Below, piece by piece: positions 7,529 through 64,000 of a stretch of 64,000 nt of DNA; the stretch's first letter is position 1; every line of letters starts with the position of its first letter. Under the pieces are notes generated by a model. That model saw nothing but the letters and a program-made list of their open reading frames with translations, had not been told where the DNA came from and ran no database searches. Origin of the DNA: Psammoneis japonica (taxonomy: Eukaryota); NCBI GenBank assembly GCA_008632985.1, contig QPGO01000022.1, positions 434,001 to 498,000 on the forward strand. The letters run 5' to 3'. The position numbers were made by a program, and so were the translations under genes.

Positions 7529-8061
7529 ATGCCAACAAAAGACAACCCAAGATCCAAAGAGCAGCAGGAGCTCAAAAGGAATGCCAAGAACACAAAAGGA
7601 AAGAGAAGGAGGAGAAAGCGATGCGCAAACAGGAGCAAAACCGGTTGCACAAACAGAAGAGTCGAGAGCGGCAGAACGAAGAGCAGATCGAGTGGGAGAA
7701 AGTCGCTCGAATCGAATGTCGAGAATGTGAAAGGCTGGAGAAGGTGGAGAAGCAGGAACGCCAATGAAAGCAAAACCGGGAGCGCAAACAGAAGAGCCGA
7801 GAACGGCAGTGCAACGCATCAGTCGTGGCCGACGGCAATGATGCCAAGACCACCAACGGCAACACGCAGCGCAACTTGAACACGGGTGTTGGTCGAGCAC
7901 CCAGACACAGTCCTGGCGATGAAGAAGCAAGTGCTCGAAGATGGAAGAAAGTGTCATTCCCCACACACGAACGCTCACATCATTGTCAGGAAGAGCGAGC
8001 AAACGTGAAACCAGGACAATTGTACGTGCGTGGATTCCTGACACTCCGTCTTGCCATCTGA
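7529..8061 (+). pseudogene. Relic charged/coiled-coil ORF whose ATG lies in the MITE B target site
   Basis: ATGCCAACAAAA (MPTKDNPRSKEQQELK...) followed by K/E/R/Q-rich frames broken by a frameshift and a TGA. Confidence 0.35.
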
Positions 8062-20700: not shown

Positions 20701-20867
20701 TGTGGCTTCCTCCTGGGCTTGAGAAACTTTGTCCTTCTTGCTTGGCCTTGTGACACATTGGTGCAAATCATGCAAATTTCATGTTTGTTGCTGTGTGGGG
20801 TGGGTGTGCTTGTTCACCAACAAGTTGCAACCCATTCCAATGAAAAACAATGGAGGCTTCAAAGATG

Positions 20868-21348
20868 CTGTGTGCACAGGGCATTTGTCTCAACAGCCTC
20901 AGTTTTGACAAGAAACAAGTGTCCCACCAGCACATGTCAATGGAAAGCACCACAACACAACTTGTCATTGAACTGCCCTCACACAGCAACTTCTCATTGT
21001 TTCTTCTGACCACAAAAACAGCACTGCTGCCATGACCCAAAAGAGCACAGTGGTGTCCTGAGTTTGGCTGGGTTCAAAAGGGTTGCTTTGATGAAACCCA
21101 GGGATGTTGAGGACACTGTGTGCACAGGGCATTTGTCTCAACAACCTCACTTTTGACAAGAAACAAGTGTCCTCCAAGCACATGTCAATGAAAAGCACCA
21201 CAACAAAGCTTGTTGTTGCACCCTCACACACCAGCTTCTCATTGCTTCTTCTGCCCACAAAAACAGCACTGCTGCTGTGACCCAAAAGGGCAGAGTGGTG
21301 TCTTGTGCTTGGCTGGGTTTAAAAGGGTTGCTTTGATCAAACCCAGGG
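20868..21348. repeat. Tandem duplication, ~248-bp unit x 2
   Basis: CTGTGTGCACAGGGCATTTGTCTCAAC...AAACCCAGGG occurs at ~20868-21103 and ~21116-21348. Confidence 0.9.
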
Positions 21349-28715: not shown

Positions 28716-31700
28716 ATGATGCTTTCGAGGAGTTCATACGCAGCTCGATCGGCGTTGATTGCGTCGCTTCGCAAAATTTCTGCCGCCCACGTCAGATCGG
28801 CAAAGGTGCGGCATTTGTTTGCTGCCGGGGCTTCCACACGTGTGGCATCGGCCTTGGATCTTTCTTCCCGCCAACAGTCGACAGCTGCGTATGATGATAT
28901 CGAGGAAACTGTGGGTGCTTCCAATGGCCATGCCGCTGCAGCAGCGATGAATGTTGCAGGATCACAAACTGAAAAGTCTCATCAGGAAGCCTGGATGGTG
29001 AACCTAGGACGCGGGAATGACAACGAATGGCTCTCTGGTGCTCGTGATGAAGAATGGTTTACTGGAGTGCCTCCCTCTGTTTGCCCTGGTAAGGCTTCTG
29101 GCGGCCGTTTCTCGAAAACGGTTTCTAAGTGTCATGGAAACAGTGTTCTTACGCTTGGTAATCTCTCTCAATCCTTTTTCAGGCGTAGATAGCGCTGGAA
29201 AGATTCGATCATTGCCTCTACCCAATCTTTCTGCGGTTACGCGTCAATCGGCGAAAGAGTACTTCGATAACTCATGGACTTTATTTGAGACGCTTTTTGC
29301 CGGTTTTGTTGGCGAGGAGCCCTTCTATCGGTAGGTTGTTGTATCTGCTGAATAATCGTGGCTTTGACTTTATGCTGATGAAATGAGCTCACGACGGAAA
29401 ACTTGGTTTCAACCTCAGCCCTCCAGTTCATGGACTGCGTCACCCACAAGTGTTTTACTATGGGCATACGCCATGCCTGTACATCAACAAGCTTCGGGTG
29501 GCTGGCGTTCTATCCAAACCCGTGAACGCGTACTTTGAAAGCATTTTTGAAGTCGGTGTCGATGAAATGCTATGGGATGACATGCACAAGAATGACATGC
29601 TATGGCCGACTGTGTCCGAGGTACACGAATATCGAAAACAAGTATACAAAACTGTTGCTGACGCCATCATGACACACCCGTCGCTGGATGATTCAAACGG
29701 TCCAGTCCTAGTGAACCAGGAGCATCCAATGTGGGCGCTATTCATGGGATTCGAGCACGAGCGAATCCATTTGGAAACAAGCTCCGTTCTGTTTCGCGAG
29801 ACTCCGTATCACCTTATGCAGGTAAGTAGCTTTCGATTTTGAAAGCTTCACTGACGACTTCATAGCATCGTGATTGACGTTTTGGCGTGTGTACGTCTCT
29901 TCACAGACTCCTGAGAACTGGCCGCCACTCCATCCTTCTGCTACGAGAAGTAGTGTCAAATCACACCCGACTGAAGGAATTGACTATCCTTCCAACAAAA
30001 TGATTTATGTTTCAAAGGACAGCGTGGATCTAGGGAAACCGCCAAACTTCCCGTCTTTTGGATGGGACAACGAGTATGGCGAAAGAAAGGTTGACGTTCC
30101 ACCGTTTCTGGCTTCTGAACACATGATCACAAACGGCGAGTTTTGGGAATTTGTTGCGGATGGTGGCTACAGAAATAGGGAGAACTGGTGCGACGATGGA
30201 TGGGAGTGGCGCAGGCACCGTAACATGAAGTGGCCTTTCTTCTGGGAACCCGCCGGTCCTGCGGTATGTGCACTACAGTTTTGAATCATCTTCTTTTGGA
30301 GATTTGTTTGTTTCTTATTTTTTCTTTTCTCTTTTCGTACTCGATGGCAGGGTTCTCACGAGTACTCGCTGAGAACGATTTTTGAGATAGTCCCCATGCC
30401 CTGGGACTGGCCTGTAGACGTGAACTATTACGAAGCTAAAGCTTTCTGCAGGTGGAAGGTATGTATCAGAGCGCTTCAATCACTGTTATAGACTGACATC
30501 TGCCTCTTTCTAACCTCAGCTGCAATATCAATCATAGACGAGAAGGGATGGATCGCCCAAGTCAAGACCTTATCGCGTTCTCACGGAAGCCGAGCATCAC
30601 ATAATTCGTCATCGAGAGCATAGTCTGGATGCTGCTCGTGCTGATGTGGATGCAGATAAAGTAATGGCTACCGGTGGTGATCTTTTCGCTGAGGGATCAA
30701 CTGGTTCGAACCTGAATCTTGCGTTCTCGTCGCAGAACCCCGTTGACTATTTTGCCGCTTCCCATACCGGTCACCGAGATACGACAGGAAACGCTTGGGA
30801 ATGGACTGAAGACCATTTTAATCCTCTTAAAGGCTTCGAAGTCCATCATGTGTATGACGATTTTTCAACGCCGTGCTTCGACGGAAAGCATTCTATGATT
30901 GTAGGTGGATCATTCATCAGCACCGGAGACGAAGCATCCGTTTTTGCCCGATTTCATTTTCGGCCTCACTTTCTCCAACATTCCGGATTTCGACTTGTAG
31001 CGTCAGATCACGACGCTCCATCCACGCACCTTTACGCGGGTGAGTTTGAAGGTCAGGCGGCGGCACGTGAATCACAAAAGGAGGGAGAAGAAGAAGAAGA
31101 CGAGACGACTATTCAATCTCACAATGTATACGAGACCGACGAATCCCTCCACATGTATCTGGGCTTGCACTATGCTTCTTCGGGCGCCGAGGAAGGGGTT
31201 GCTGCAATTCTTCCACATGAAAACGCTCCTACACACGGATTGCGATTTCCTCAGCGTGTTGCGAAGCTTTTGACCGACTTAAAGCCAGTCCGTACAAACA
31301 ACACTGCTTTGGATATTGGATGCGCAGTTGGGGGTGCATCTTTCGAGCTTGCCAAGACTTTTGAAAGAGTCGATGCATTCGATTTCAGTGAATCCTTTGT
31401 TTCGGCGGCCCGGCACATGCAATCCGGTGATGCTATGGAGTTCAATGTTCCTGTCGAGGCGGACCTTTTCGAAACTGTAGCTGCTGTTCACGAGGACGGA
31501 CTTACAGCAGAAATGCGAAATCGTATCAACTTTTTTCAAGGAGACGCTTGCAGCATCAATGAAATGGCGGCTTCCGGTCAACTGGGCACGTATGACGGTG
31601 TAATCATGTCCAACTTGCTCTGCCGCCTGCCCGACCCTGTCGCAGCTCTTGATGGCTTGCCCCACGTCGTGAATGAGGGAGGTGCTGTGGTGATGGTAAC

Positions 31701-31926
31701 TCCATTTAGTTGGCTAGATGAGTTCACACATCGTAGCAAGTGGCTTGGAGGTTTCTATGATCCTGTTTCGGGTAAACCCTTGCGTTCAGAGGACCGGCTT
31801 GAAGAGCTGATGGAAGAGCGCGGTTTCAAGAAGATCCATGATTCCGAAATGCCTCTGGTGATTCGGGAGCACCAGCGCAAATATCAATACATTGTTAGTA
31901 AGGCTACGGGATGGCGAAAAGAATAA
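28716..31926 (+). CDS. ovoA: 5-histidylcysteine sulfoxide synthase OvoA (DinB + FGE-sulfatase + SAM methyltransferase), 5 introns
   Basis: FYYGHT..YINKL, GVDEMLWDD, the iron motif HERIHLE, FGWDNEYG, GNAWEW, FRPHFLQHSGFR, LDIGCAVG and IREHQRKYQY. Introns at ~29089-29182, 29331-29418, 29822-29906, 30263-30350 and 30459-30537. Confidence 0.93.
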
Positions 31927-33911
31927 TCTGAATGCAGGTCGTCCCTTTGAGAGCCAGTTGCTGGGATAACTGTTGTGAGGGGGGAGAGATGCTGTAGACT
32001 ACTGTAGAGTAAAGAGACTTGAAAAAGTGCTAAAGGATTCGAATTCTTGCTGTGTGCTTTTTCCTAAATGCAAAACATTGAAGCAGCACGGAAGCAAAAC
32101 TAGAGCGAAGCTAAAGTCCATCAATGAATGTTTTAGGGTGAAACATTTTCAATTTTGGTCAAGAAGCGAACATGCGCAGGCCATTGGGGTAACATGATCA
32201 TCTATCTACGACTAAGTCTTCGTTGAATTCCAACACGGCGTCGGGCAGGCAGAGCGGATGGATAGAATGGCTGGCTAGAGCCAAGGCATGGATGGATGGC
32301 ACTGGATGGATGGAATGGACAGCCATGGATGGAACTCATGCCGAGCAAAAAGCACATGGAGCCATGCCCATTCACGATGTGTCTTTTTCGGATGTCATGG
32401 ATGCACACAACAGATGGCTCCCACCTCAAACAGCCACATTGCCCATGAAGTGTCGTAAGTTGAAGAAGATGTGTTGGATGTTGATTCCCAGGTGGACATT
32501 GCAAGCGCCACTCCAGTGAGCATCAAGACAACTGCTTTGCCTTCTGCCTCACATGTGACCTCTTTTGTTGGAGTTCTCACATGTTTGCAGATTCCAAGTG
32601 GGGCCCAGTTCACACATCTCCTGCCAGCTGTGCTGCTGACAACGTGTCTCAAGCTGCAGATGCATCAGCCATTGGTTCCCAGATGGACACCTCGAACAAT
32701 GTTTGGATGAGTGTCAAATGTCTGCTGTGTCTCACCTGAGCCATCTGCAGCAATTTTTCATTTTGGCTTGCTGCTGTTCTCCACCAGCTTGATGGCATGC
32801 TTTCATCAAATGACAAGGCAAGCCTGCTCCAGACCTGCAGTGCTTTTGTTGTTCTGGCTGTGCAATGGCTGTCACATGCATCAGATGGGCAGATTGTCAG
32901 CTTGGAGGCTGTGCTGCCTGCTTGCTGCCTCTGTGATGCCATGGTGTGACAGCTGTGGCGTGGGTGCAGTCAATGCTTTGGTGGTGGCCAAATCAACTCA
33001 TGCTTGGATTTTTGGCTCTGACAGCTGTCAATGATTTTGGATGCACAAAGCCAGCACCATTGCTTCTCTCATCTGAGCAAGCATGACCAGTGGAAGCTGG
33101 GCAACTGTGAAAGGGGGCGACCAAATGTTGTTGCACCTTCCACCACTCTGTGACCGCTTGACCTCTTTCCTCCACAGTCAATGCCGTTGTCATGCTGCAC
33201 AGTGCTTTTCATGGGGTGCTCCTGACTTGTCAATTGTTGCTGGCCACAATTTCACAGTTCCCACCAGCCAGGGGAGAGAGCAAGAACGTGGCAAAGAGGA
33301 AGCATTCAAGCTCAGCAAGCATGGAAGAAACTGTCATGATGATGCCTCATTTGGGAGCCCATGTTTCAAACAGCAGCTGCAGCCTGATTCTCACTTGCCA
33401 TGCACCCAATTTCTTCTGACATTGAGTTGCTCAATCACAAAATGTTTTTGTCCTGCATGTTTTTCAGGTTTGAAGAATGGTGTGGGGCATGTGTTGCTCA
33501 ACAAGATTTGTTGGAAACTGCTGATGATGCTTTTTGTCGAAGTTGAAGTTTTTGGTTTGTGCTGTGCAGCTGGGCCTGGCCATTTGTTGCATCATCTGGC
33601 TTGCCAGCTTGCCACCTTTCTGTTGAAAGGTTGTTTTTGTGGTGCACTGTTGCAGCTCTGCGATCTTCACTTGTTGGACAGACATTGCAGATCAGGAGAG
33701 AGCAGTGTCAGCATGCGCTGGACCTGGGTGCATGTGCAGATCTCTCTGAGATCTCTCACTTTCTTTCATCTGGCATCATGCTCACTGATGCTGCTGTCCC
33801 AGCATCTTGTTGGGTCACTGCCCATGCATTGTTGTGTGAGAGATCTGCTTGGCTGTCTTGTTCTGGCTGTTGTGCAGTGATCCACAGAGTTGGTGTGCTG
33901 ACAGCGATGGC

Positions 33912-33913
<2 letters not shown>

Positions 33914-33982
<69 letters not shown>
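33914..33982. repeat. (GA)n microsatellite (shorter tracts at ~24236, ~35237 and ~35543)
   Basis: Perfect GA dinucleotide run. Confidence 0.98.
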
Positions 33983-33984
<2 letters not shown>

Positions 33985-34099
33985 GCTGTTGCCATCTCAA
34001 GCCAGTCAACAAGTGCATCACAAGATTGCACTTCTGCCTGAAAAAAAGCAAAAAGTGGAAGAGAAGTGGAAGTTGGGGGCAGTGTTGGCAGAAGGGAGC

Positions 34100-35542
34100 A
34101 GACGACAAATTACAAAAAGTCGCACGCAAGCAACCATCTTACTTTAAAAGCTCGTTGTACCTCAAGAATGAGCTGGTCCAAATGGCAGCACCACCAAACT
34201 GCCTGCTTTTCACCTCTGATGCCAAGTCCTGCTGCTCGAACATCCCAACAAACAAAGCCCTTTGAGCAATTGCGGCCTGTCTATGATGACACAAGAATGA
34301 ATTCCAAGACGCACCAGCAGAAGCCCTCATTGAAGCCCTCTGCATCACAATGAAACACAGTGTCTTTGCTTTCGGTGACACCACATGGCTCCAACGCAGT
34401 GGCACCGCAATGGGCACACCACCTGCCCTGCCACATGCCACGCTCTTTTGTGCTCTACACGAAGCCACTCTCCTGGAGGAGTTTGGCACAAACCTGGTTT
34501 TCTGCAAATGATTTATGAGTGACGTCTTTGGCATCTGGCAAATTGCCAAATCAACCTCCGACGCCACTCGCTGGAATGCACTCACCTCCAGAATGAATGA
34601 CTGCAACATCAATTGGGTCACGAGTCCAAGGGCCCACCAAGCAAACTTCATGGACCTCACCATCACACTCCAAGGCTCCAACCCACACACCACTCTTTAT
34701 GAAAAAGAAATGAATTTACACCTGCACATCCCTCCACATTCAGCTCACCCACCTGGAGTGCTCACCGGCCCAATTGTGGGCATGCTCTTTTGCTTCAAGA
34801 ATCTCTGCTCAGACCCTGCTGACACAAAAGCAAAGATGAAACTTCTTTGCCATTGACTGCTTGCTTGAGGCCACAAGCCCAGCAAGCTCCAACCCATCTT
34901 CCAAAAGGCATGCAACCACCTCTTTGGCAATGAAACAACTGTGAACAAGCCCCCAACCAATCCTCCCATCTTCCCACATGTCCCATGCCATCTGAACAAC
35001 CCACCATCCAGCAAACTGCAAAAGACATGGAAAGGAACGATGGCCTCTCCACCACACTCCCAGCCACTTGCCAACATTCAAAATCACAACCAACAAAACA
35101 CATTGGCCCAGACCACATGATCATTTGCTGCAATTGGTCAGGCAACCTTGGCAACCTTCTTTTGTGCCACATCCTTCACACCTCCAATGGCCCCCCAGTT
35201 TCGTCCCACCGGATTACAAGCAGGGAGGCCACTGTGAGAGAGAGAGAGAGAGAGAGAGAGAGTGCAATGACATGAATTCAAACTGAATCAATCGACTCAA
35301 ATCACCTTTCCCTTGCCCCCGAATCTTTTTAACATGACAACCTCAACCACGTAAACAACAACAGTCAGCCGCTGATGAAGCCACCACACGAAAGTCTCAC
35401 TCCTGACTTCGGCCAACGTTGTTGTGCCTGCCATTCACTGAAACAGTTGGGTGAAGATCTGAGCTGGTGGCTCCACCTCAGCTGCTCTCATTCTTTGTTT
35501 GTCATGTTTGACAGAGAATTGGCTGCACCAATTCCTTTGTTT
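34100..35542 (+). mobile_element. 5'-truncated Penelope-like retroelement (RT + thumb; no GIY-YIG seen)
   Basis: Motifs LFTSDAKSCCSNIPT, FAFGDTTWLQRSGTAMGTPPA, K*FMSDVFGIW, FMDLTI, TTLYEKEMNLHLHIPPHSAHPPG and NLGNLL. In-frame TGA stops. Confidence 0.85.
35356..35424 (+). ncRNA. Type I hammerhead ribozyme (Penelope-associated)
   Basis: CTGATGA core at 35372-35378 and GAAA at 35390-35393. Stem III is AGTC/GACT. Stem I is CAACAAC-A-GTcaGCCG / CGGCcaAC-GTTGTTG. Stem II is minimal. Confidence 0.7.
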
Positions 35543-37116
35543 GAGAGAGAGAGAGAGAGAGAGAGAGCTGCTTTTGCCATCTCAAGCCAGTCAACAAGTG
35601 CATCACAAGATTTGCACTTCTGCCTGAAAAAAAGCAAGAAGTGGAAGAGAGGTGGAAGTTGGGGGCAGTGTTGACAGAAGGGAGCATCCCTGGAGAGTGG
35701 CCTGCCATGCTTGCTGCCAGCAAGCACTTTGTTTGGGGCTCTTTCTGTCTCTCTCTTTTCCAAAAAAGAAAGGATGAAATGCACAGCAGAGCATGTGTTT
35801 TGATGCCAGCCATGGAGGTTGCAGCTCTCTTCTCCTTCCCTCAAAGGTTTCTCATGAAAAAAGACTCCAGAACTTGAAGATTCTTTCTGCTGGGGCTGAT
35901 GGCATTGTGACAAGTTTGTTGCTGCAGTGTGGAAACTGCCAGAGAAAAGAGAAACAGTGGTGAGTTGCGATGTGACCATGTGTGCCCTTTTCTCCATCTT
36001 TCATTCCAGAGATGAGAGCACCAAGTTTCGTTTCTCATTCCTCTCTTTCTGAAAATGTGTTGCCACTTGTGGCTCTCTTTCCTGGGCAACTCTGCTCATG
36101 TGAAAGAGTGCGCCTTGTTCTTGGAGGAGCGCCGCAAGAGTGAGGGGGCGCAGGAGTGGGAGCAAGAACCAGCACTCGAAAATTTGGTGCCTGGCGGAAG
36201 CAGAAAAGGGCCTCTTGCTTGTCAATGCAGCAGGGATGGTCACCATGACCACTTTTGGACTGAGCCACTTCTTTGTCCCCTCCTGGCTTTCTGGCTGGGT
36301 GGCAGAGCGACCTGGGATTTTTTGACTGCTGGTGTGCTCGCTTTGACTGCCGGTGTGCTTGCCATCACAGCTGCAGAGCCTTGATTTGTGCTTGGTCACT
36401 TGGCTTGATGAAGTGGACTCCAGATTTGTTCCATTCCACCAGGGGCATTTTGTTTGTGCTGCTCGAAAAAAGGCTGGAATCATCGATCCCACATTGTTGC
36501 ACACTGCCCTGCTCTCTCCATCCACCCCCTTGTCACCTGGCTGGCGCCTGGCTGTACAAGAATGCAGAATCTGGAATCTTACTGAGTTGCTTCTATTTTA
36601 CCCTTTTGTACCGGTTACTTGTTCCTGTGCGTAGAAATCCACTGGGAAACATACCAAGTTTCCGCCGGGGCAACTTTTAGTGATAAATTCGACGGTCAAG
36701 AGGTAGGTTGACGATGACGAAGGTTGTTGCCGCCGCTACTCCATTTGAATTGTTGTCGACGATTGACAAGCCGCTGTTTATAGCCGTATTATGTTTGCTG
36801 TTGGTAATGTTGGCGACCAGATTGATCGTGGGGAGAGCAGTGCTTGCAACTGGATGGGGAGCACCGCGGTGTGCGTTGTAGCTACCATGAGGAACAGAAA
36901 CAAACCTTCGGATGCCACTTGGATCGAATGAACTGAATCTGATATGACTGATATACTTTGTGTTTTCGATGCAAGTGCTTGGTATTTCGAGATCGAACCC
37001 GTTCAAGTTGAAAGACCATAGAGTTCGCGTTTCATGTAGTGTCACTCATTCGTGTCTTTCCTCTTGTTTTCAGACTTTTGTCGGTTTCCACTTTCGTTCA
37101 ATCACACGCTGGAATC

Positions 37117-47278: not shown

Positions 47279-49210
47279 CTAGACGTCAACACAGAATTGT
47301 TCCTCTCCAACAGTTGTGCAGGATTCACCTCCTTCATCTTCAGTCTCAATAGTGAGTTTCTTGTCGACACATTCCGTGCTGCAAGCGTCGATTTGGGATG
47401 GCTCTTCAACTTTAAACGTTGCCCCGGGCGAGATCCTTAGGGCTTGATTATCCGGGGGGATGCCGGCGATGAGGTCACGGGTCTCACCATCACACTCCCG
47501 TTCAAACGTAGTAAGGACAACCTCCTCATCGCCGGTGTTCTCGAATGCATAACTGTAGTCAACATCAACTAGACAGTTCGCAAAGTTATCTCCGCTTGGA
47601 TCAGAGCATGATTCAACGGTCGTATGGCCGAACTTGTCCTTGAGGTTAATGGGGATTTCTGTCCCACCCGTAGTAACGAAGGTGAAGTTCTGACTGATTT
47701 CGCCATTTTCATTGTTGTAGACTTCGCACGTGACTTCGTCAGGGAGACATCCTCCGTCCACCCCTCCAATAACAATTACTCCGCCTTCACGAACAGTGCA
47801 GTTGCAAAAGACTCTCACCGTGTCAAAGCAGAAAATCAAAGCTTCTCCACCTTCTGGAATCTGCTCATCGAAGTCTTCACATACGAAGTTGTCACCTTGG
47901 TCATTATCGCTCTCGGTGCAGTCACAGTCTTGGTATGATAGCGAAAGCCGGCTGATGCACTCGCCTCCGCAAGTTTCGTCTGGTGGGACGATTTCGTCAC
48001 ACGGGTCTTCACTGTCCGAGGTTAGGCATGTGATTTCGGGCTGTGTTGTGGCAAAAACATAGATATGAGAGACGAAGCTGAGTAAAACTTATGCAACTGA
48101 AACATAAGGCATGCTGGATGGAGCTGTGTAGCAAATCAAATTTACCTCAATGTCACACCCCGAATGGGGGGGAGAGTGGGTGGCTCGATGCAGAACTCCA
48201 AGTCATCCTCGGCTTCGCAAATGGTGCCATCTTCAGCTACCGCGACAAGAGTGACCTCTTTATCAACACAACCCGCCGTACACGCATCAACTGTGGAAGG
48301 CTCTCGCGCCACGAATGTGTTGCCCGGTTGAATCACGAGGGTTGGATCGTTAGGAGGAAGATCCTCAATGAGATCCTTTGTTTCTCCGTTACAATCGCGC
48401 TCAAACTCGGTAATTGTGGCCGGGACATCACCAGTGTTACTTGCGGTGTACTGGTATTCGACATCAATGAGGCAGTTCTGAGAACTTCCATCCTCGTTCT
48501 CACATGCTTCAATCGTCAAATGTCCGAACTTGTCTTTAAGCGCGAGGGGTGCGCCACCGGAGGCATCGAAGGTGATGGTCTGACTGACCCCACCACTGTC
48601 CGCATCGGAGATAGTACACGTCAAGTCATCTGGAAGACATCCATCAGGGTTTTCAAAAACGACGACCCCGCCTTCACTGACGGTGCAGTTACAGTACACC
48701 CTCTCGGCATCCGCGCAAAAGACAAGAGCCTCCCCACCTTCTGGAATTACCACTTCGGTGTCTTCACAATCAAAGGCACTTCCTTGATTATTATTGCTTT
48801 CAGTGCAATCACAGTTCTGATATGAAAGAGAGAGGCGTTCAATGCAGCTGCCACCAGAGCACAGTCCACCGGTTCCCTCGATTTCATCACAAGGTTCGTT
48901 CCCATCTACGGTTGCGCAGTCGACAGAGACCTGCGTACAGCAACCAACAAAAACAACAAATAGGTTTCGAAAGTTGTCAGACGCTTGATACAATTAGTTG
49001 ACTAGTTTTCATGACAAAAGCACTTACGTCAACGTCGCAGCTGCCTCCTCCTCCTCCGCTCATCGAAGAAGCGTCTTGCATAAATCTTGCCCAGTATGCT
49101 TCATCTTCCTTGGTAAGTTTTCCTTCAGTTGCCCTAAGGTGGGGCGAGGGGTTGCTAGCATCAGCCACAGCCATCACGGCGAAAATAGCCGCGGTTACGA
49201 AGAACTTCAT
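47279..49210 (-). CDS. Secreted acidic Cys-rich protein with two internal ~250-aa repeats
   Basis: Signal peptide MKFFVTAAIFAVMAVADA. Duplicated module CI.RLSLSYQ.CDCTES.N.QG..F.CED...LKDKFGH...DAC...CVDK. Two introns. Confidence 0.75.
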
Positions 49211-52890: not shown

Positions 52891-53240
52891 CACCACAGAC
52901 AACACAGGTAGTCTACGGGTACGGTTTACGAAGCAGGCTAGCTTTCAGCTTTTGTACTGTACTTTCCATTAAACTAGCGAATGCCTTGATACCGGTAGTT
53001 GGTCAGGTCTGTAGTATAGTGCACGCCTACCTATCAGATGAGAGTTTGCAGGCCTCTACGAGAGTTCGGATGTGCCCGCCCAACGAAGAGGATCTTTTCG
53101 GATGTTGTCGGATGTTTGAAAAAAAGAAGAGCGCGCCTCCGCGTTTAAATTTTGCGCCCAAAAAGCTCGAGAGTTGAATTGTCCGAGAGGAAATAATGAT
53201 GCGCTGAGGAGATACATAGGTGCCTGAAGAAATGCCTCGA

Positions 53241-53467
53241 CGATGATCCTTCTTCCTCAGTTTAACGGTGTCTTTAGTCATATCCGGAGGATAAAAACTA
53301 GACCGTTCCAGCGATTATTCTTGAGCGGTTCCTCAGAGAGTGCCAGTAGAGATAAAAAAGTAAACCTTCCAGACGAAGCGAACGTTGTTATTGTGGGTGG
53401 TGGCATCATTGGTACTTCGGTTGCTTATCATTTGGGAAAGCTTGGAATACAAGACGTGCTTCTGTTN
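53241..53467 (+). other. Exact duplicate of the first ~225 bp of the next gene, ending at an N (scaffold join)
   Basis: 53241-53466 is identical to ~53750-53975, with an N at 53467. Confidence 0.85.
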
Positions 53468-53751
53468 CTGTTGCGTACCATTGCTGGTATCTCTTTATTA
53501 TTGTTACGAAAAGTATCCCCTATCTTTCTTGTGCTGTGTGTTTGATTTGTGGCGAGAAATATCGGTCACACTCGTGTGGTCTCGTATCGGTATTTTTTGA
53601 CTGACACCGACCGATACTTTGATGTTTATTCATTCATTTCGTCTCTTTACTCACACTTCTTAGATTAAATCATTACTTTATAGCTACAAAAAGATTAATC
53701 TGTCTTGGATATGCCTTTGGTGGGGTCTGTGAAGAGCAAGTATCATTCACG

Positions 53752-56530
53752 ATGATCCTTCTTCCTCAGTTTAACGGTGTCTTTAGTCATATCCGGAGGA
53801 TAAAAACTAGACCGTTCCAGCGATTATTCTTGAGCGGTTCCTCAGAGAGTGCCAGTAGAGATAAAAAAGTAAACCTTCCAGACGAAGCGAACGTTGTTAT
53901 TGTGGGTGGTGGCATCATTGGTACTTCGGTTGCTTATCATTTGGGAAAGCTTGGAATACAAGACGTGCTTCTGTTAGAACGAGATAGATTGACCTGTGGT
54001 ACAACATGGCACGCCGCGGGGCTGATAAGCACTTTTGGTAGTCTGTCGAGCTCGTCTACTGCCATGAGAATCTACACCAAAGAGCTTTACTCGTGGATTT
54101 TGCCGCAAGAGACCGCAATGGACACTGGCTTCATGCCTGTCGGCTTCATCGAATTAGCTTGCGACAATGACCGTCTACATTACTATCGAAGAGTGGCAGC
54201 GTTCAATCGCCACTGTGGAATACAAGTGAACGAAATATCACCTCAAGAAGTTCGAGACAGATTTCCAGCATGCAGAACGGATGATGTTCTTGCCGGATTT
54301 CATGTTCCAACCGATGGAAGAGTCAACCCACATGACGCAACAATGGCATTGGCAAAGGGAGCTAGACAACATGGAGTGCGATTAATTGAGGGAACGACAG
54401 TTGTGGGAGTTTCAACTACCAACGACACTCAAGAATCGCTCATCCCTAGTGTAACAGGCGTTACCACCTCTTGTGGACATCATATAAAGTCAAAAACAGT
54501 TGTGAATTGTGCGGGGATGTGGGCACGGCAGTTTGGGGAGCTCGCTGGAGTCAGTATTCCTAACCAAGCCGCCGAGCATTACTACCTAATTACGGATGAT
54601 ATGCCGGACATCGACCCGTCTTGGCCTGTGATTGAAGATCCATCACGGTGTGTTTATATTCGCCCGGAAGGCGGTGGTCTTATGTTTGGATTATTCGAAT
54701 GGGAAGGTGCATCGTGGAATGTTGAGAAGGTACCAATGGACTTCAGTTTTCAAGAAATTGAACCGGACTGGGAGAGAATGCTGCCCTTTCTTGAGAAAGC
54801 CATGGATCGAGTTCCGTCGGCGTTAAACGTCGGCGCTAAGACTCTCTTTTGTGGCCCTGAGAGTTTTACGCCAGATGGATGCCCTATCATTGGGGAGGCT
54901 CCGGAATTGCGCAACTACTTTGTTGCTGCAGGCTTGAATTCGATCGGGATCCTCACCGGTGGCGGTAGGCATTTAATCTAACGCATTGTGCATGTTTTGT
55001 ATCTACCTTACTCATATCCATCTTTTTATTCTTTCCTTAGGCGTAGGAAAGATTCTGGCGGAGTGGATTTCGGAAAGACACCCCCCGACTGATGTCGATG
55101 TGACTAGCATCCATGTAGATCGGTTTCACAAGTTCCAGAGTAACCCTGAGTATAGGGCGAAAAGGGCCGGAGAAAGTCTTGGCAATACGTACAAAGTACA
55201 TTATCCAGACCACACGAACAGCACATGTAGGGGTGCAAAGAAGTCGGTATTGCATGATGTACTCGCAAAAGAAGCAAATGCGTATTTTCGTGAAGTTAGT
55301 GGTTGGGAGTCTCCTTCGTGGTACGCACCCATGGGAAAAGATCCCGTTGTAGAGGAGGAGAGTTTTGGGAGGGAGAGTTGGTTCCCTTATTGGGAAGCTG
55401 AACACTTTGCGTGTCGAAATGATGTTGCTCTGTTTGACATGTCATTTATGAGCAAGTTCATGGTGGAGGGGAGAGACGCAGGGAAGTTTCTCAATCGGTT
55501 ATCGACAGCAAATGTGGATGACGAATGCGGACGCATCACCTATACTCAGTGGCTCAATGAGCAGGGTTACTTGGAAGCCGACCTAACCGTGACAAAGTTG
55601 TCGGCAGACAAGTTTCTGGTGGTCGCTACCGATACAATGCATAACCATGTATACGCACACATGAGGCGCCGACTGTCCAGTGGCTTACACGCGTTTGTAA
55701 CCGATAAAACCGGAGCATACGCCCAGATAAATCTACAAGGGCCAAGGTCACGGGATCTTCTGCAAACACTTACGTCCCGGAACATGAGTGAATTTCCTTT
55801 TCGTCGCGCAGCAGAAATTGACATTGGTCTTGCTCGACTTTATTGCGTCAGAATTACTTATGTTGGAGAGCTCGGGTATGAGTTGTTTATCCCCGTCGAG
55901 CAAGCTATGCATGTCTATGACCGAATCATGGAAAAGGCTGCGACATTCAATCTTAGACACGCTGGACTAAAATCTCTTGGAAGTTTGCGTTTGGTAAGTC
56001 GGGGTTCGTACCTCGTAATACCTGTGGATGTCTGGTACCGTAACTCAGCCTTTTTCTTCTCTCTTTTTTTTCTTTGATGACAGGAGAAAGGTTACCGGGA
56101 CTATGGCCATGATATTGACAACACAGATACAATTCTGGAGTGCGGACTTGGGTTTACGTGTGATTACGGGAAACAAATTCCGTTCATTGGACAAGACCAA
56201 GTGCTACTGCAGAAGGAAAGAATCGAGCAACAGGGTGGACCTAAGAAGCGAATGGTGCAAGTTTTATTGAAAGATCCCAAGCCGTTGATGTACCATGGAG
56301 AAGTAGTATGGCGCAACGGCGAACGAGTCGGTGACATAAGATCGTCATCATATGGACACACGCTGGGTGGAGCAGTCGGATTAAGCATGTTGGAGAGTCG
56401 AGATGGACCAATCGACAAGGAGTATACGAAGACGGGAGATTGGTCGGTGGAGATCGGAAGTGACCGATACGCTTGTGACGTATCACTCATGCCGTTCTAC
56501 GACCCAAAGAACACTAGGATCAAATTATAA
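53752..56530 (+). CDS. Sarcosine/dimethylglycine dehydrogenase (FAD oxidoreductase + GcvT domains), 2 introns
   Basis: GGGIIG, GTTWHAAG (covalent FAD His), GPESFTPDG, GWESP, RITYVGELGYEL and PFYDPKN. Introns at ~54965-55040 and ~55993-56083. Confidence 0.92.
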
Positions 56531-56561: not shown

Positions 56562-58719
56562 TTAGATATCTACGCCCATAATCTTTGCGACCTGTGGCAT
56601 GTCCTTGTCACCGCGGCCACTCATGTTAATCACAATGTCTTTGTCTTTTCCCAAAGTCTTCGCAAGTTCAATCGCGTAGTAAATGGCATGGCTTGTCTCC
56701 AGCGCAGGAATAATACCTTCATATTCGCACATCATCTTGAAGCCCTCGAGTGCCTGGTCATCGGTGACTGCATTGTAAATAGCGCGCCCACAGTCCTTCA
56801 GGTACGCATGTTCTGGACCGACACCCGGATAGTCCAGCCCGGCTGAGATAGAATGGGTGTCGAGAGTCTGACCGGAAGGTTCTTGAATGACATAGGTGAG
56901 AGCGCCCTGAAGAACTCCGGGGGTCCCCTTCGTGAGCGTAGCACAATGCTCCCGGTCCTTTTCAATTCCGTGTCCAGCAGCTTCTACACCGTGCAACTCG
57001 ACGCCCTCATCTTTCACGAACGGATAAAACGCACCAATGGCGTTCGACCCACCACCAACACAGGCAATGACGGCATCTGGCAATTTGCCGGCCTTCTCGA
57101 GCATCTGAGCCTTCATTTCAGTTCCCATGACACTCTGGAAATCACGAACAATCGTCGGAAAGGGGTGTGGACCAACGGCAGATCCAATCAAATAGTGCGT
57201 ATCGCGGACGTTGGTAACCCAGTCACGCATAGCCTCGTTAATTGCGTCCTTGAGAGTACGTTGACCTTCTTGAACTGGCACAACTTTGGCACCAAGCGTG
57301 TTCATGCGGAACACATTGAGCTTCTGCCTCTCGCAGTCCACCGCACCCATGTACACGGTGCAATCAAGACCAAGCATTGCGCACACGGTAGCAGTGGCAA
57401 CGCCATGCTGTCCGGCTCCCGTCTCTGCAATGATACGAGGCTTTCCGATACGCTTCGCTAGAAGCGCTTGACCAATAGCATTGTTAATCTTGTGAGCACC
57501 GGTGTGCGCCAGGTCCTCACGTTTGAGCCAAATTGTGGCGCCACCGCAGAGCTCAGTGAGACGCGTCGCTTTGTGAAGGGGGGTTGGTCCTCCCACAAAG
57601 TCGCGACGATAACGATCGATTTCCGCAAGAAAGTCAGGGTCGTCCTTGATTTCGTCGTATGCCTTTTCAATTTCTGCAAAAGCAACTGACAAGGTCTCAG
57701 GAATGTACTGTCCTCCAAAGTTTCCAAACCTAGCTCTTTCTCCGTTCGCAGCCGATTCTGTTGCCACCTTCCCCAACGCGGTCGCTTGGTTCTTGGCTCC
57801 TTCGTCCTGTTTGACTCCAGTCACCAGATCGGCGACAATGGTGCGGACAGCACCTGCTCGTTCCTCCGTCGTGTCCCCAGCGGCTGCAAGGGCCTTGAGA
57901 ATGGCACTTCCAACCACAACGCCATCGGCAATGTTAGAGACACCGTGTACCATATCTGAGTTAGAGATGCCGAAACCAACGGCAAGAGGCAAATCAGTCT
58001 TGGTCCGAACGCGGGCGACAAAGTCGTCCAAATCGGGTGGGAGAGCACTTCTCGCCCCAGTAACTCCGGTCACCGATACACAATACAAAAAGGTGGACGC
58101 CATGTCCGCAAGGTATCCGATGCGCTCGTCGCTGCTTGTCGGCGCAACGAGAGGAACATTTGACAAGCCGTGTTTGGCGCAAGACTTAGCCAAGGCTCCT
58201 CCCTCCTCCGGAGGCAGATCAACTACAATGAAACCATCGGCACCGGCGGCCTTTGTGGCTTCGCACAGCTTCTCTACCCCAAACTGGAAGAACGGATTGT
58301 AGTATCCCATGAGCACAACAGGAATTGTAAGTCCCATTGAACGAGCCTTTGATACCATGTCGAGGCATTGAGGAAGCTTTGACGTGCCCCCAGCAATGGC
58401 AACTTGATTCGTGTGCTGAATGGTAGCCCCATCGGCCTGGGGATCAGAGTACGGAATACCCAACTCAATAACGGAGGCACCACCTTCTTGCATGGCCATC
58501 AAGATTGCAGGTGTATCTGGTGATTGCAAGAAAGAAAAAGACCGTCATGATGAGAAGGTGCGCGTTTCAACCATACCAATCCAACACATGACGGTCAACC
58601 GAAAACGCACCTTCAGCCGAGGGGAAACCGGCAGTGACAAATGTCACAAAAGCGGCTTCTCCGCGTTCCTTTGCCGAAGCAAAGGCATCTTCGATTCGTC
58701 CTCCAGGTCCACGCTTCAT
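56562..58719 (-). CDS. Tryptophan synthase alpha-beta fusion
   Basis: TrpA motifs [14 protein letters not shown] and GVTG, then TrpB motifs [37 protein letters not shown] and SGRGDKD. Intron at ~58517-58610. The start may lie further upstream. Confidence 0.95.
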
Positions 58720-59390
58720 GTTGCGAGAGTAAATACTTCTGTCCTCTTCAGAGAATGCGGTATCAATGTTAGCACCACGAAACAACGAAACCACTGAACG
58801 AAACAACTTGGCACTGGTTATCACTCCAAGGAGAGCAAGTTGAAGTCTCCGCAAGCGAACTCAAGAGACGAGTGAAATGAATGAAGTCAGCTCGCTTGTT
58901 CTTTCAAAATGCGTCATTTTTGCCTCCAGCCGGCTGTCGAACAGACCATTCTTTATTTTCTATTTTCTGGGACGGATGGACGGGCGGACGGAAATAGATG
59001 GGCCGTCCATCCGCCCACCCGTCCGCTCCGTCCGTGCATCGACAGTATAATACCGTACAGCGTTTGCCGAACCGAACGCTTACTGCTTGCGCGAGATCGT
59101 GCTGAGTGCGTTGAGTTTGGCAAGAAGGGACCGGACAAATTCTCAGTATGGCCCCTACAAATTCGTCGTAGAATCTACGGGAGGGATTCGGATAAAAAAA
59201 CGAATTTTTCCCGGCCTGCACCAGATTTCGATTTTTCTGCTGTCCTATGTACAGCAGCTTTGGTACTCGCTTACGTATTTTAACGGTTTTCGACTGAAAC
59301 AGAAGCAACAGCAAAACGGACGGGCTCTCGAATGTCGCAAGTCGCAACTACTGTACGGTAACACGGCGAACACGGTACTGGAAGTATTTC

Positions 59391-61835
59391 ATGCAACCAG
59401 CAGTTAGTTGTTGTTGTTGTCGCATACCGTTCACTTCGCGAATAAGGAACGCATCACCAAGCAGAATGCGAGGTTCCAAAATAAGCACCTCTGTAATTGG
59501 CTCCGCTGAACTATCAAGGAGCTCTATGATGTGTGACTCCAATAGTGGAATAAGTGCTCGTGGTGATGCTCCACGCCAGCCATTGCATCTGCAAGAGAGG
59601 TCGGCATCAGCACAACGTCAACAAACACTTCGCCATCATGTGCGAAACAGACGGTCCAAGATTTGTATGCTCTCTGGAGCGTTGATTGCGGCGTCCTTGT
59701 ACCATTGCGAATCGAAAGGTGTTGCTGCGACTGGGATTCAGTCTGGAGGCGGTGCAAAGAGATCAGGAGAATCGCAACGTGAACGTTTCGTGTCCGCTGC
59801 AGCGCTCGTAGCTGCAGGGTCCATCTTGATGAATGCAGCAGCGGAAGAGGGAAATATCGACCAGACATACGATCGATCACTTGTTCCAGCAAATCACTTG
59901 TCCTTTGAGACTGCGGACGAGGCGAATCATATTGGAGACGGTGTTCGTTCTGAGGAATCCTCCAGTCATTTCTTCCAGTCGATCGATACCGATGGCGACG
60001 GAACCCTTGATGCACCCGAGCTTGCTGATGTTGTTCGACAATACATCGACGAGGCATCCTTTGACACAGCCGGAGTAGAAGATGAAGTAAATCGAGTCAT
60101 GAAAAAACTAGACCGGAACGATGAAGAAGGGGTGGACAGCTCGGATGTGTTTGCACACTGGATGCAGCTGGAAAGCCTTCTTACAGTCAACGAAGTGGCT
60201 GAGTGGGTCGTATACGCTGTCCAAATGCCAGATTATGTGGGACACATATTCAGAGAGAACTTTGTGACTGGCTACGACTTCCCAGAACTGGCAGAGAACG
60301 GAGGAGAAGCCCTTTTGTCGGAGCTCAAAATAGAAAAGCCGTCCTTTCGAAAACGGTTGGTGAAGCATGTGTATGCCCGTCTCCTTGGGATCGGCTCGGT
60401 TCCGACGTCTCCAGAGCATGTTAAATACCAACTTGAGAGTTGTTCCACGGTGAGCTTTTCATGGGGAAAGTCTTCAGCGGTTGGCTTTCCAGTTCATAGT
60501 TACAGAGTCCAACGTCGAGCGGTGCCTTTGTACCGAACAGATTCGATGGATAGTCAAGTAGATGCGTTTGCTGCAAGAGTTACGGACCACGTAAACGCGG
60601 GAAGCGATCAATGCGTGGACGACGAGTTATCTCCAACGGACACGGTATGCAGTGCGAAGCCTGACACAACCAGTAGCTCAGACTGGGTTACAATGTACGT
60701 CGGGGGTGAAACGGATTTCATCGATGCCGGCTTGGAGCCCGGGAAGAACTATCAGTACCGTTTTCAGGCTTGGAACTCGGTTGGGCGGAGTCCGTGGACT
60801 ATCGTAGATATCTCCCAATCGTTGAAAAAGCAAAAGTGTAACTTGACAAAGACAGCTGTTGCGCAGAAGCGAAGCTGGACTCCAAAGGAAGCGTCAATGA
60901 TGGGCTTGTTGTTCTGGGGCGGGGGAACTCTAATAAATGGGTCGTACGTCCTGTTACAATTCCTTTTGACGGGTCTTGCTGTGGCATCAGCGGTCATGCG
61001 CTTTAGGCGAGCGTCTGCAAAGAGCACAGCTGTTGCCAACGCGGAAGCCGTTGCGCCATCCCTATGGACCGGGCTCAACTCTTTTTTCGCTCGGGTTCTG
61101 GGTGTGGAAGTTGTACCCTCATCCGAACTTGGGGAACACAGTACTCTCCATCACTCCAAGAACGTGCATGATAAGTCGGTAAACGCTGTCGGACTTAACG
61201 GCTACTCCAGCACGTCAAAAACCGATCCATCTGGCAGACGGCTCGCCTTTCAGAAGTGGCAGACGAAGTCCGCCAATGATGTTGCACTGCTACCGGAGAG
61301 TCTGCCAAGCAACACCAGACCGCATAAAAATGTATCGTTCAGACTCAATCGAAGCGTGCGGAATAACTTGGTTTCCGTCGACGACAGCACAGAAGAGGAT
61401 GTGGCGCTTCCGTCAAACTCTCTGCCCTCTCGCGATTCATCGCCATATCGAGTATCTCGTGAGAGCAGCGTCAATAGCCAAGACAGCAGTGACTCAGGTT
61501 GCTGCTGTGAAATGGAAGATGATGACTCAAGATGCAATACCTGTCAAAAGCGGTACAAATTTGGCAAGCGTTGGAAGCATCATTGTGCCAGGTGCATGTC
61601 AACATTCTGCCACAAGCATGGTCGCACCACCCACACGAACTTGACGAGCTGCAAAGTTCCAGGCACCTGTATTTGTAATGTGTGCCTTGAAATTGAACAG
61701 TTCAACATGAGAGACTCGTCACCAAGTAACATGGCGAGAAGTGGTAAGCGATGGTTGTCGAGAAAGCAGCGTTCAGCTGACGGCGCATCTAACCAGCTTT
61801 CTGAAGCTCAAGAGAATGCACTTCAGTCCTATTAG
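59391..61835 (+). CDS. EF-hand-SAM (STIM-like) + fibronectin type III + TM + FYVE-like zinc finger protein
   Basis: EF loop DTDGDGTLDAPE, second EF DRNDEEGVD, SAM LTVNEVAEWV..AVQMPDY, FN3 LEPGKNYQYRFQAWNSVGRSPW, a hydrophobic segment at ~60900-61000, and CNTC..KHHCARC..FC. The real start is probably a later Met. Confidence 0.8.
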   Translation: MQPAVSCCCCRIPFTSRIRNASPSRMRGSKISTSVIGSAELSRSSMMCDSNSGISARGDAPRQPLHLQERSASAQRQQTLRHHVRNRRSKICMLSGALIAASLYHCESKGVAATGIQSGGGAKRSGESQRERFVSAAALVAAGSILMNAAAEEGNIDQTYDRSLVPANHLSFETADEANHIGDGVRSEESSSHFFQSIDTDGDGTLDAPELADVVRQYIDEASFDTAGVEDEVNRVMKKLDRNDEEGVDSSDVFAHWMQLESLLTVNEVAEWVVYAVQMPDYVGHIFRENFVTGYDFPELAENGGEALLSELKIEKPSFRKRLVKHVYARLLGIGSVPTSPEHVKYQLESCSTVSFSWGKSSAVGFPVHSYRVQRRAVPLYRTDSMDSQVDAFAARVTDHVNAGSDQCVDDELSPTDTVCSAKPDTTSSSDWVTMYVGGETDFIDAGLEPGKNYQYRFQAWNSVGRSPWTIVDISQSLKKQKCNLTKTAVAQKRSWTPKEASMMGLLFWGGGTLINGSYVLLQFLLTGLAVASAVMRFRRASAKSTAVANAEAVAPSLWTGLNSFFARVLGVEVVPSSELGEHSTLHHSKNVHDKSVNAVGLNGYSSTSKTDPSGRRLAFQKWQTKSANDVALLPESLPSNTRPHKNVSFRLNRSVRNNLVSVDDSTEEDVALPSNSLPSRDSSPYRVSRESSVNSQDSSDSGCCCEMEDDDSRCNTCQKRYKFGKRWKHHCARCMSTFCHKHGRTTHTNLTSCKVPGTCICNVCLEIEQFNMRDSSPSNMARSGKRWLSRKQRSADGASNQLSEAQENALQSY

Positions 61836-61989: not shown

Positions 61990-64000
61990 GCACCATCGCG
62001 AACAGTGTGCCTGTCGCTGACTGAGCTTTGTGCTTCGGTTTAATCTTGAAATCTTTGTCTTTGTTCAGTTCGCGTCACTCCATCCTCTAGCAAATCCATC
62101 TGCAAACATGGAAGACGACCATTCCTGCTCCTGTCGACCACCAACAGTTCAGATGGACTGTGTTTGGCATCATCTGATGAGAGTGATGAGTCCTTGTGGC
62201 CACACATGTGGCCTGTGGTTTTTTCTGTTTTCTCTCTGCCAGTTTTTTTTTTCCAGTGCCTCTGAGCAGTGCCCCCCAAACAATGAAGGTGTGTGTCCAC
62301 CCATCACCAGGGCTGTTGGTCCATCGCACAAGCTGCACGTGCCCAGAACCTGCAAATGTCAGACATCAGATTTGTTGCAGTTGCCACACTGCTGTGCTGG
62401 AAAAACAGCCATTTTTTGCCAAGCAAAGCTGCCCTTCCTGTCACAAACAATTGGCCACAACTTCCAGGGATGAAATGGTTGCAACAACTGGCACTTGACT
62501 GTCAACGTCCCTGGCTGCAGTTGCTGGAGCTCTCCAGGCTGTTGACCTCACACACATGGTTGCAACTGCCCAAAACAGATTCCATGTTTTCTCAAAAGCA
62601 AAGCAAGAAGTTGCATCTGTTGCTCAGCTTTGTGGATTCCAAAAATGTCAAGCCCCAGACCATTGACTTGGTCCATCCTTGATGACACACACCGGCAAAC
62701 ATGCCAACTTGGTGTTTTCTGGTGCAGCATGATGAGCAGCCTTTTTTCAGCAAAAATGATTGTCGTGTGTTTTGCCAGATGCCTTCCCCCCAGCCCCTTT
62801 CTTGCAACCCTCAAAGTTTTCACCACACTGCAATGTAAGATCTGGCTGTCTTGGGTGCAAGTGCTGCAAAAGGTGGCAAAGTTGTGCACAAACTGGGTGT
62901 GCAGCCACATGTTGAGGCCAGCTGACTCTCTTCCACCATTGTTTTGCATGGTCCAATTTGTGCCAAGCCAAACTCTCATCTTGCAGGTGTGGACAACAGC
63001 ACGTGCTGATTTAAACAGCTTGGCTGCATGCCTGCAGTTCCCAAATCTGTTGAGATGCAGCACAGAATTTGCACCATTGCCGCCACATTCTGCAGGTTCA
63101 GTGCTTGACACAGGCAAAGGAGAGCCATGCTCTGGCACAATGGACAATCTCACTTGTTTGACCAGAGCTCTTGTGATTTGCACCATGGCCACATCTGCAA
63201 GCCGCGTGCATCCAGGCCAGAATTTCTGTCCAACAGATTGAAAAAAATGGTGGAAAGACAGGGTTTGATGCTGGTGTCTTTCAGGTGCAAAAAAGGGCAT
63301 GTCATGCACAACCAATTTTGTTCTGCTGTGCAAATTCAGCCCTGTGCTTTTGTCTGACAGCCAAATTGTCTGCATTTTGACATCTCTTGTTCTTTTTGTC
63401 AGGTGGGTGAACAAAAGCTTCTGCTTTGCAAGCACATAAAATTTTCCACACAGGCATCAGAAAAATTGCTGAAATTGCAGCCATGCACTGGTTTTTGCTG
63501 CCATTTCTCATTTTTTTTCAACTTGGCTGTTGTTGCCACCAATCTGCAGTGCCATGTTGGGCTTCACATTGGCAAGATCATTGACTTTTTCTTTTCCCAC
63601 ACAACTTGCCTGTCACCTTCTGATGTGCCACCATTTCTCACCAACAAGAAAGCTCCAACACCTGCAGCTGCACTCACATTAATTTGACAACTCTCCTCAT
63701 TGGCTTGGTGTTTGCTCATTGCAGTGGTGTCCCTTGTGCCTCTGTGCTTTGGCCAAACAAACTCTCATCTCTGCTGTGCAACTCACAGCTTCAGCTGCTC
63801 CAGCTGATGATGGCCATGATCCCTTTTGCAATGGCTGTGTTTTGTGAGTCTTGTGGTGGGGCACCTTCAAAAGCACGGACCTTGCACAAGTGGTTCCCTC
63901 ATCTTTCAAAAACATTTTTCTGTCTCCTTTCCTTGCTGCAGAGCCCATGTGCCCTCCAGAAGTTGATGTTGTTGGAGCAGATGACTCAGCAAGTTACAGC
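61990..64000. repeat. Transposon-derived block, TpA/CpG-depleted (runs off the window)
   Basis: About 7 TA in 2 kb, and Tyr-free Cys/His-rich ORFs. Confidence 0.8.

Follow-up and report, generated by a model that had tools for sequence, protein, structure and literature searches.

What does a protein do that carries the calcium-sensing half of STIM, lacks the half that opens Orai channels and ends in a zinc finger? The question is raised by a reading frame at positions 59391 to 61835 (plus strand) of a 64,000-nucleotide stretch of contig QPGO01000022.1 from Psammoneis japonica, called the window below, which is eukaryotic and diatom-like in sequence. A first-pass annotation made from the letters had proposed a STIM-like EF-SAM calcium sensor with a single new architecture, whose finger would bind phosphatidylinositol 3-phosphate (PI3P) in place of signalling through CAD/SOAR. 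By computation we found the architecture (EF-hand pair, SAM, FN3, a single transmembrane helix, linker and Cys/His finger, in that order), a STIM-type sequence and fold in its sensor half, a topology signal across the family and a family that ranges over several eukaryotic supergroups, so that the architecture is not confined to one protein. The EF-SAM unit is very probably homologous to that of STIM, and the protein is likely a non-cytosolic calcium sensor. Our leading account of the whole chain, which we hold tentatively, is that of a sensor in the endoplasmic reticulum (ER) serving a non-animal Orai. The parts of the reading frame are as follows, in window coordinates.

59391..61835, plus strand: whole reading frame, 814 amino acids, no intron seen (open reading frame and contigs of sequencing run X2)
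59661..59699, plus strand: first, weak hydrophobic stretch, residues 91-103, about 13 residues (hydropathy; role putative)
59787..59843, plus strand: signal-peptide-like or signal-anchor stretch, residues 133-151, ending in AAA before acidic residues (hydropathy)
59952..60047, plus strand: EF-hand 1, canonical loop at 59985-60020 (Pfam, AlphaFold2 model)
60066..60167, plus strand: EF-hand 2, non-canonical loop at 60111-60146 (alignment of 46)
60177..60389, plus strand: STIM-type SAM domain, the most conserved part (SAM-only search, alignments)
60393..60824, plus strand: FN3 domain with a variable insertion (fold: Z about 13, root-mean-square deviation (rmsd) 2.0 Å, 97 aligned)
60927..61007, plus strand: transmembrane helix, residues 513-539, then the basic cluster RFRR (hydropathy, model)
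61008..61208, plus strand: juxtamembrane segment, two short helices, conserved in diatoms only (model, alignments)
61209..61514, plus strand: Ser-rich disordered linker, variable (model, composition)
61524..61694, plus strand: FYVE-fold zinc finger without PI3P motifs, with four extra conserved residues (profile search, fold, alignment)

The loop of the first EF-hand (residues 199-210, DTDGDGTLDAPE) is canonical, as had been read at first, and its ligands are conserved in 41-45 of 46 broad homologues (D1 in 45, D/N3 in 45, D/N5 in 44, G6 in 41 and E12 in 43). The second EF-hand does run into a SAM domain: its loop spans residues 241-252, and the SAM motifs quoted in the first-pass annotation sit at residues 252-333. 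Loop 2 has Asp or Asn at positions X, Y and Z and Asp at position 12, and lacks Gly6. Position X is Asp in 38 of the 46 broad homologues, whereas the hidden second EF-hand of STIM1 has Phe108 there (PMC10400917). As loop 2 retains Asp at X, weak binding of a second ion there is possible. Among land plants (P0233 and the plant rows of alignment A2), loop 2 is degenerate, a trait shared with STIM. On the last SAM helix, V324, V327 and L331 stand at the places of L192, L195 and L199, the hydrophobic anchors of helix 10 of the STIM1 SAM domain (PMC10400917), in a register set by hand from sequence alignments; positions 327 and 331 are hydrophobic in 46/46, and position 324 is Thr in nine.

Sequence searches point to STIM in several ways. 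The best match of the whole protein in the PDB is the STIM2 EF-SAM (2l5y, expectation value (E) 2.3e-5, residues 195-324). When the 74 residues of the SAM domain were searched alone, the PDB matches at E<=10 were STIM2 (1.4e-4), STIM1 (0.0076), SAMD5 (0.017) and C. elegans STIM (1.4); STIM2 and STIM1 thus rank above SAMD5, the one other SAM protein found, in keeping with the STIM-type assignment made earlier. For the distant member P0102, three STIM chains take ranks 1-3 (STIM1 best, E 2e-6), and for a moss member STIM is first among SAM-bearing chains (E 1.5e-5 vs 0.004 for SAMD5). Pfam says less about this protein alone, with sub-threshold matches to EF-hand (E 1e-4) and FN3 (E 0.0025) and no match to SAM or FYVE. 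Among 38 diatom-type homologues, at E<=0.1, EF-hand_7 was matched by 33, fn3 by 28, FYVE by 22 and SAM_2 by 21.

The fold agrees with the sequence. In the AlphaFold2 model, block pLDDT is 79-97 across residues 181-380. Comparison of the fold, suggested earlier as a check on the likeness to the STIM1 EF-SAM, put STIM first: Foldseek returned the C. elegans STIM EF-SAM as first match (E 7.5e-6, rmsd 2.5 Å), and a VIA fold comparison with 48,161 PDB representatives gave the same domain as first (Z 16.3, rmsd 4.0 Å, 152 aligned) and STIM2 at Z 12.0, the remaining matches being FN3 domains; STIM led in all three fold searches made, but these share one model, and STIM structures may be in the training set of the predictor. 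Identity to STIM EF-SAM in the fold alignments is 16-21%.

The protein has several features in common with STIM1 and STIM2 of animals and choanoflagellates (2K60, 2L5Y, 6PW7), namely the order and fold of EF1, EF2 and SAM, the canonical first loop, the hydrophobic anchors on the last SAM helix and a single-pass arrangement in which the EF-SAM is probably non-cytosolic. In STIM, however, the SAM domain leads straight into the membrane, while the diatom protein has FN3 and a stalk in between; STIM has CC1 and CAD/SOAR, while the conserved cytosolic part of the present family is a zinc finger; and some members of this family have two EF-SAM modules, its range taking in stramenopiles, haptophytes, Rhizaria and green plants. 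Because of the inserted FN3, the Asp kept in EF loop 2 and the missing coiled coil and CAD/SOAR, we do not regard the protein as a STIM proper; judged by the cytosolic features that define the STIM family, it falls outside. On the sensing side it most likely works like STIM.

The sidedness of the protein was examined across the family. Of 102 members with an initial Met and a complete EF-SAM, 86 carry a hydrophobic stretch upstream of EF1 (within the first 30 residues in 52) and 88 a transmembrane stretch after FN3; Lys and Arg are more numerous after than before this stretch in 69 of the 88, less numerous in 12 and equal in seven, counts that overstate the evidence in so far as the members are related and not independent. 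Control windows from the tails passed the hydrophobic test in 39 of 1,700 cases. A conserved pair, Cys351 and Cys483, flanks FN3. Both residues are present in all 38 diatom-type members; in the broad set of 46 both are found in 34, neither in nine and only the first in three. Being kept or lost together in 43/46, the pair fits a disulfide in an oxidising compartment, and we consider this disulfide probable. Hydropathy, the positive-inside rule and the Cys pair all favour the non-cytosolic EF-SAM of the first-pass annotation, and the family-wide statistics favour placing EF-SAM-FN3 in the lumen or outside the cell; these topology data do not separate the ER from the plasma membrane. In the protein itself, neither of the two upstream hydrophobic stretches had been mentioned before. 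The second, at residues 133-151, is common to the closest homologue (P0002) and sits behind a long N-terminal extension, in which Met92 is a possible alternative start.

The FN3, transmembrane helix, Ser-rich linker and Cys/His finger described at first are all contained in the 814-residue frame. On the other side of the membrane, column conservation of the juxtamembrane segment is 0.48 in the diatom set and 0.20 in the broad set, and Ser makes up 22% of residues 606-708 in the linker. Pfam holds a SOAR model. No STIM cytosolic family was found among the Pfam matches of 38 + 7 proteins, and past the membrane the AlphaFold2 model shows only short helices, the longest of 12-15 residues. The absence of CAD/SOAR, which had been part of the original proposal, is thereby upheld.

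The finger ranks second in conservation among the parts of the protein, in the diatom alignment and in the broad one alike. Its zinc ligands (C715, C718, C732, C735, C740, H/C743, C762 and C765) are kept in 43-46 of 46, and four extra residues, H730, H748, C754 and C760, in 42-43 of 46. It has eight zinc ligands, their spacing and a similar predicted fold in common with FYVE domains (Vps27, EEA1, Hrs, RUFY1) and with Rab-effector fingers (melanophilin, rabphilin, RIM). With the diatom profile, the finger matches the FYVE domain of Vps27 (E 2.8e-6), and the top ten of a fold search with the finger are all of FYVE or Rab-effector type at Z 5.1-6.8, the two groups being tied: melanophilin at 6.8 (rmsd 2.9 Å, 62 aligned), RUFY1 at 6.0, protrudin at 5.9, EEA1 at 5.5, RIM at 5.4 and rabphilin at 5.1, where even the best Z is below the level that the tool calls distinctive. 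The PI3P signature of FYVE domains consists of WxxD, R[RK]HHCR and R[VI]C (PMC3017826). WxxD was found in 0/118 fingers, R[RK]HHCR in 1/183 family proteins (this protein reads WKHHCA; the shorter [RK]HHC is kept in 77/183) and RVCxxC in 1/183, RIC not being counted. The place of the Arg in the FYVE RVC is occupied by C760, and is Cys in 43/46. With all three motifs absent and four Cys/His added, the proposed PI3P binding is unsupported, as is the action of a PI3P finger at contacts with endosomes or the vacuole. The four extra Cys/His, which set the finger apart from FYVE domains, could hold a third zinc ion that would fill the old lipid pocket. With 11 Lys/Arg to 3 Asp/Glu the finger is nevertheless basic, and it could attach to acidic membranes in an unspecific way.

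A survey of stramenopiles for orthologues had also been proposed, and relatives were indeed found in diatoms and other stramenopiles, and beyond them in a haptophyte, a rhizarian, green algae, mosses, lycophytes and probably Ginkgo. In a search against 1.84 billion representatives, 365 proteins reached E<=1e-10, FN3-only ones among them; a wider set of 1,142 matches is not the size of the family, because FN3-only proteins (e.g. P0173, P0179) are included. Thirty members were looked up, and for eight the organism is on record (Phaeothamnion, Chrysoparadoxa, a pelagophyte, a Pavlovales haptophyte, Paulinella, Tetraselmis, a pedinophyte and Chlorokybus), and among the 49 closest homologues the seven with a species name are all centric diatoms. 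Two EF-SAM modules in tandem occur in 14 non-redundant members. Tandem EF-SAM-FN3 proteins include P0061, P0062, P0064, P0070, P0081, P0090, P0102 and P0146; in a module tree both modules of P0061, P0062 and P0064 cluster together, and in the other tandem members first and second modules fall in separate groups, which suggests that these proteins arose by several duplications. The tree, used only for picking representatives, was midpoint-rooted on near-complete EF-SAM modules, with the duplicates P0184-P0229 left out.

For land plants we used the plant-like member P0160 as seed, and obtained 11 matches among 1,769 candidates: Physcomitrium, Sphagnum, Selaginella, Diphasiastrum, two proteins labelled Gb_ and five unnamed ones. 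The named matches are 44-72% identical to the seed, the mosses at 44-46% and a Gb_ protein at 72%, and three of the unnamed ones 85-100%. We take the Gb_ label to stand for Ginkgo. As annotated, one Gb_ protein is without its first EF-hand. Among the 15 listed of the 77 members of the P0160 cluster, all come from Logan and JGI, which would fit conifers. No named angiosperm protein was among the 11 matches, in a search of incomplete recall. As this word-seeded search also missed the green-algal members P0165 and P0166, and as no liverwort, fern or conifer is named among its matches, the angiosperm blank is suggestive only. A second pointer to absence from angiosperms is that the Atlas cluster nearest to the moss protein, among clusters of at least 50 members, is an oomycete one (score 0.95, 70 members, SAM and FN3), where a flowering-plant cluster would be expected if there were one. 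An Atlas search with the EF-SAM part gave one match, a Chlorophyta cluster at 0.84, below 0.9 and a lead only. In oomycetes, a Phytophthora infestans match from a STIM1 search, called a 'STIM-1 homolog', shares the SAM motif and was set aside, being judged to lack other domains of an ER sensor (Zheng and Mackrill, 2016, PMC4820453); it is probably a member of the family described here. We found no description of the EF-SAM-FN3-finger architecture in the literature on STIM and Orai outside animals, in a search that did not take in most subscription journals; PMC11990657 and PMC11402311 had nothing to add here.

This distribution can be set beside the published range of Orai. According to reviews, Orai extends from green algae to gymnosperms but is absent from angiosperms, and the lineages that have Orai lack STIM (PMC11894410, PMC8318260). 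Both centric and pennate diatoms have Orai, the latter a divergent Orai only, and no STIM1, so that a different protein was expected to do its job (Murphy et al., 2024, PMC11085791). Oomycetes had been stated to lack Orai (PMC9694693, PMC4820453), but the alignment of Murphy et al. includes Orai of Phytophthora and Saprolegnia (PMC11085791). A comparative-genomics study has STIM arise close to the base of the animals (PMC7016017), and the reviews leave open what gates Orai in the absence of STIM, or whether store-operated entry exists there (PMC11085791, PMC11894410, PMC8318260). The range of the family parallels that of Orai as far as tested; the match is real at the level of lineages, but coarse. 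From metagenomes we recovered 11 centric-type Orai loci (L001-L011), and the two that were scanned both pass Pfam Orai-1. In centric-diatom Orai (e.g. L003:736-1572, minus strand), the pore helix is preceded by a charged N-terminal extension that hardly varies, an invariance due in part to the search pattern; in the alignment of Murphy et al. (PMC11085791), similar extensions are seen in brown-algal, oomycete, moss and Chlamydomonas Orai, and not in human Orai. The extension is a candidate docking surface, but pennates have the divergent Orai only. A complex prediction with two copies of Orai L003 (residues 1-212), the tail of P0024 (481-748) and three zinc ions gave a score of 0.00 (mark 0.34) and counts neither way, as it was run without alignments, with a partner of uncertain fold and with chains probably from different species. 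A second co-loss, in pennate diatoms, was considered since all seven species-named proteins among the 49 closest homologues are centric; it was dropped, as the source genome had provisionally been taken as pennate and the homologue search scored no more than 7,999 candidates.

Taken together, these data place an ER calcium sensor homologous to STIM, serving a non-animal Orai, ahead of the other explanations, and the family is plausibly the missing partner of Orai. In such a single-pass protein, the two EF-hands, the SAM domain and an FN3 spacer would lie in the ER lumen, and linker and finger in the cytosol. By analogy with STIM, calcium in EF1 would let the last SAM helix pack into the EF cleft and keep the unit compact, and a fall in luminal calcium would loosen it, so that the units self-associate and the tails cluster. 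In the weakest part of the proposal, the clustered basic fingers might reach the plasma membrane on their linker of about 100 residues, and might there engage non-animal Orai directly or via a partner, replacing CAD/SOAR and the lysine tail.

Several observations weigh against this account. The protein has neither a coiled coil nor CAD/SOAR, the one element known to gate Orai, and some members (e.g. P0062, P0064) lack the finger. Between SAM and membrane lie about 150-180 residues of FN3 and stalk, and FN3, the disulfide and tandem ectodomains would fit a receptor at the cell surface as well. The E-values of the sequence matches to STIM, 1e-4 to 1e-6, are modest, and the broad 46-sequence profile favours calmodulins and titin, with STIM not among 60 listed of 503 PDB matches; the 44 protein matches of this profile, almost all of them diatom-type members, did not include STIM either. 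Co-occurrence with Orai was compared by lineage from reviews and not genome by genome, the plant search had the gaps described above, and the family is not tied to one type of Orai if the source diatom is, as provisionally taken here, pennate.

What else could the protein be? A luminal STIM-type sensor may have an output other than Orai, the finger binding a small GTPase, another protein or an acidic lipid at contacts of the ER with endosomes, the vacuole or other organelles, much as first proposed but with no strict specificity for PI3P. We rate this as unlikely, yet as the most serious of the alternatives: the finger is basic, ties in fold between Rab-effector fingers and FYVE domains and keeps [RK]HHC in many members, and variant FYVE domains may still bind phosphoinositides (PMC3017826), but all three PI3P motifs are altered, and the apparent loss of the family alongside Orai in flowering plants would go unexplained. 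Less likely again is a receptor of the plasma membrane that senses extracellular calcium, or mediates calcium-dependent adhesion, and signals inward via the finger. A signal peptide, FN3, the probable disulfide, the single-pass topology and the tandem EF-SAM modules, as ectodomains often have them, would all suit such a protein; all solved structures that have the EF-SAM fold, however, are of ER sensors, and the family spans seawater, freshwater and land lineages that presumably meet very different external calcium.

The two remaining explanations would remove the link to STIM or turn the protein around. An EF-hand pair and a SAM domain, both of an ordinary kind, might have fused independently and converged on STIM with no STIM-like switch, as the strong match of the EF pair in the broad profile to calmodulins, the low identity to STIM EF-SAM and a weak match to PF25578 (STIM EF-hand; best E 0.004) might indicate. 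We consider this improbable, since the SAM domain alone prefers STIM, EF and SAM align to STIM as one unit of 140-152 residues, and this family, like STIM, appears to carry that unit outside the cytosol in a protein that spans the membrane once. More improbable still is a cytosolic EF-SAM in this protein, with residues 91-103 and 133-151 both crossing the membrane: two hydrophobic stretches are indeed present, but the first is only about 13 residues long, and a cytosolic C-terminus accords with the basic cluster after residues 513-539, with the Cys pair and with the zinc finger.

The family is a named candidate for the Orai switch, with the right sensor, probably the right membrane side and, as far as tested, the right range. 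A wider scenario, which we put forward with somewhat more reserve than the Orai link itself, is that an EF-SAM store sensor paired with Orai did not originate in Holozoa but was present near the last eukaryotic common ancestor, that stramenopiles, haptophytes, Rhizaria and green plants use a three-zinc finger derived from FYVE in place of CAD/SOAR, and that flowering plants lost both sensor and channel together. On this view diatoms, oomycetes, mosses and gymnosperms would have store-operated calcium entry, gated in a different way. Even without the link to Orai, a STIM-type EF-SAM in several supergroups would move the origin of the sensor to early eukaryotes. What the present analysis adds is the land-plant range of the family and its parallel with the loss of Orai. 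Gene targeting is routine in Physcomitrium patens, and as the family is present in this moss, the Orai question is directly testable.

The gene itself is a single open frame from the ATG at 59391 to the TAG at 61835. Sequencing run X2, filed as probably DNA, resembles a transcriptome, with a spliced contig in a neighbouring gene: the contig departs from the window at 58611 and resumes with the letters of 58487-58516, leaving out 94 bases of a tryptophan synthase gene that begin with GT and end with AG when read on the minus strand. Since X2 contigs run through the STIM-like frame without a joint (59298-61624 and 61626-61821) and take in its first ATG, the gene seems to be transcribed and to have no intron; X2 is a single sample, which may be the source of the window itself, and its contigs give no start site.

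The neighbours in the window are a fused tryptophan synthase, a FAD-dependent oxidoreductase and a peptidase C78 gene. The tryptophan synthase alpha-beta gene (56562-58860, minus strand) is divergent from the STIM-like gene and contains the 94-base GT-AG intron at 58517-58610. The 5' part of the oxidoreductase gene (53228-54981) is doubled in tandem (about 53228-53545 and from 53750), and the first copy contains an N, so the duplication may be an assembly artefact. A frame at 30538-31926 resembles the end of a formylglycine-generating-enzyme-type domain fused to a methyltransferase, presumably as in the ovothiol synthase OvoA. TpA observed/expected is 0.02-0.14 in 1-8000, 16001-24000, 32001-36000 and 62001-64000, as against 0.5-0.7 in the gene-rich parts; several of these blocks show CpG loss too, and the last starts just downstream of the STIM-like gene. 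Lastly, two adjacent Cys-rich and acid-rich frames with similar repeated units lie at 47279-48993 (minus strand), possibly encoding a secreted or cell-wall protein.

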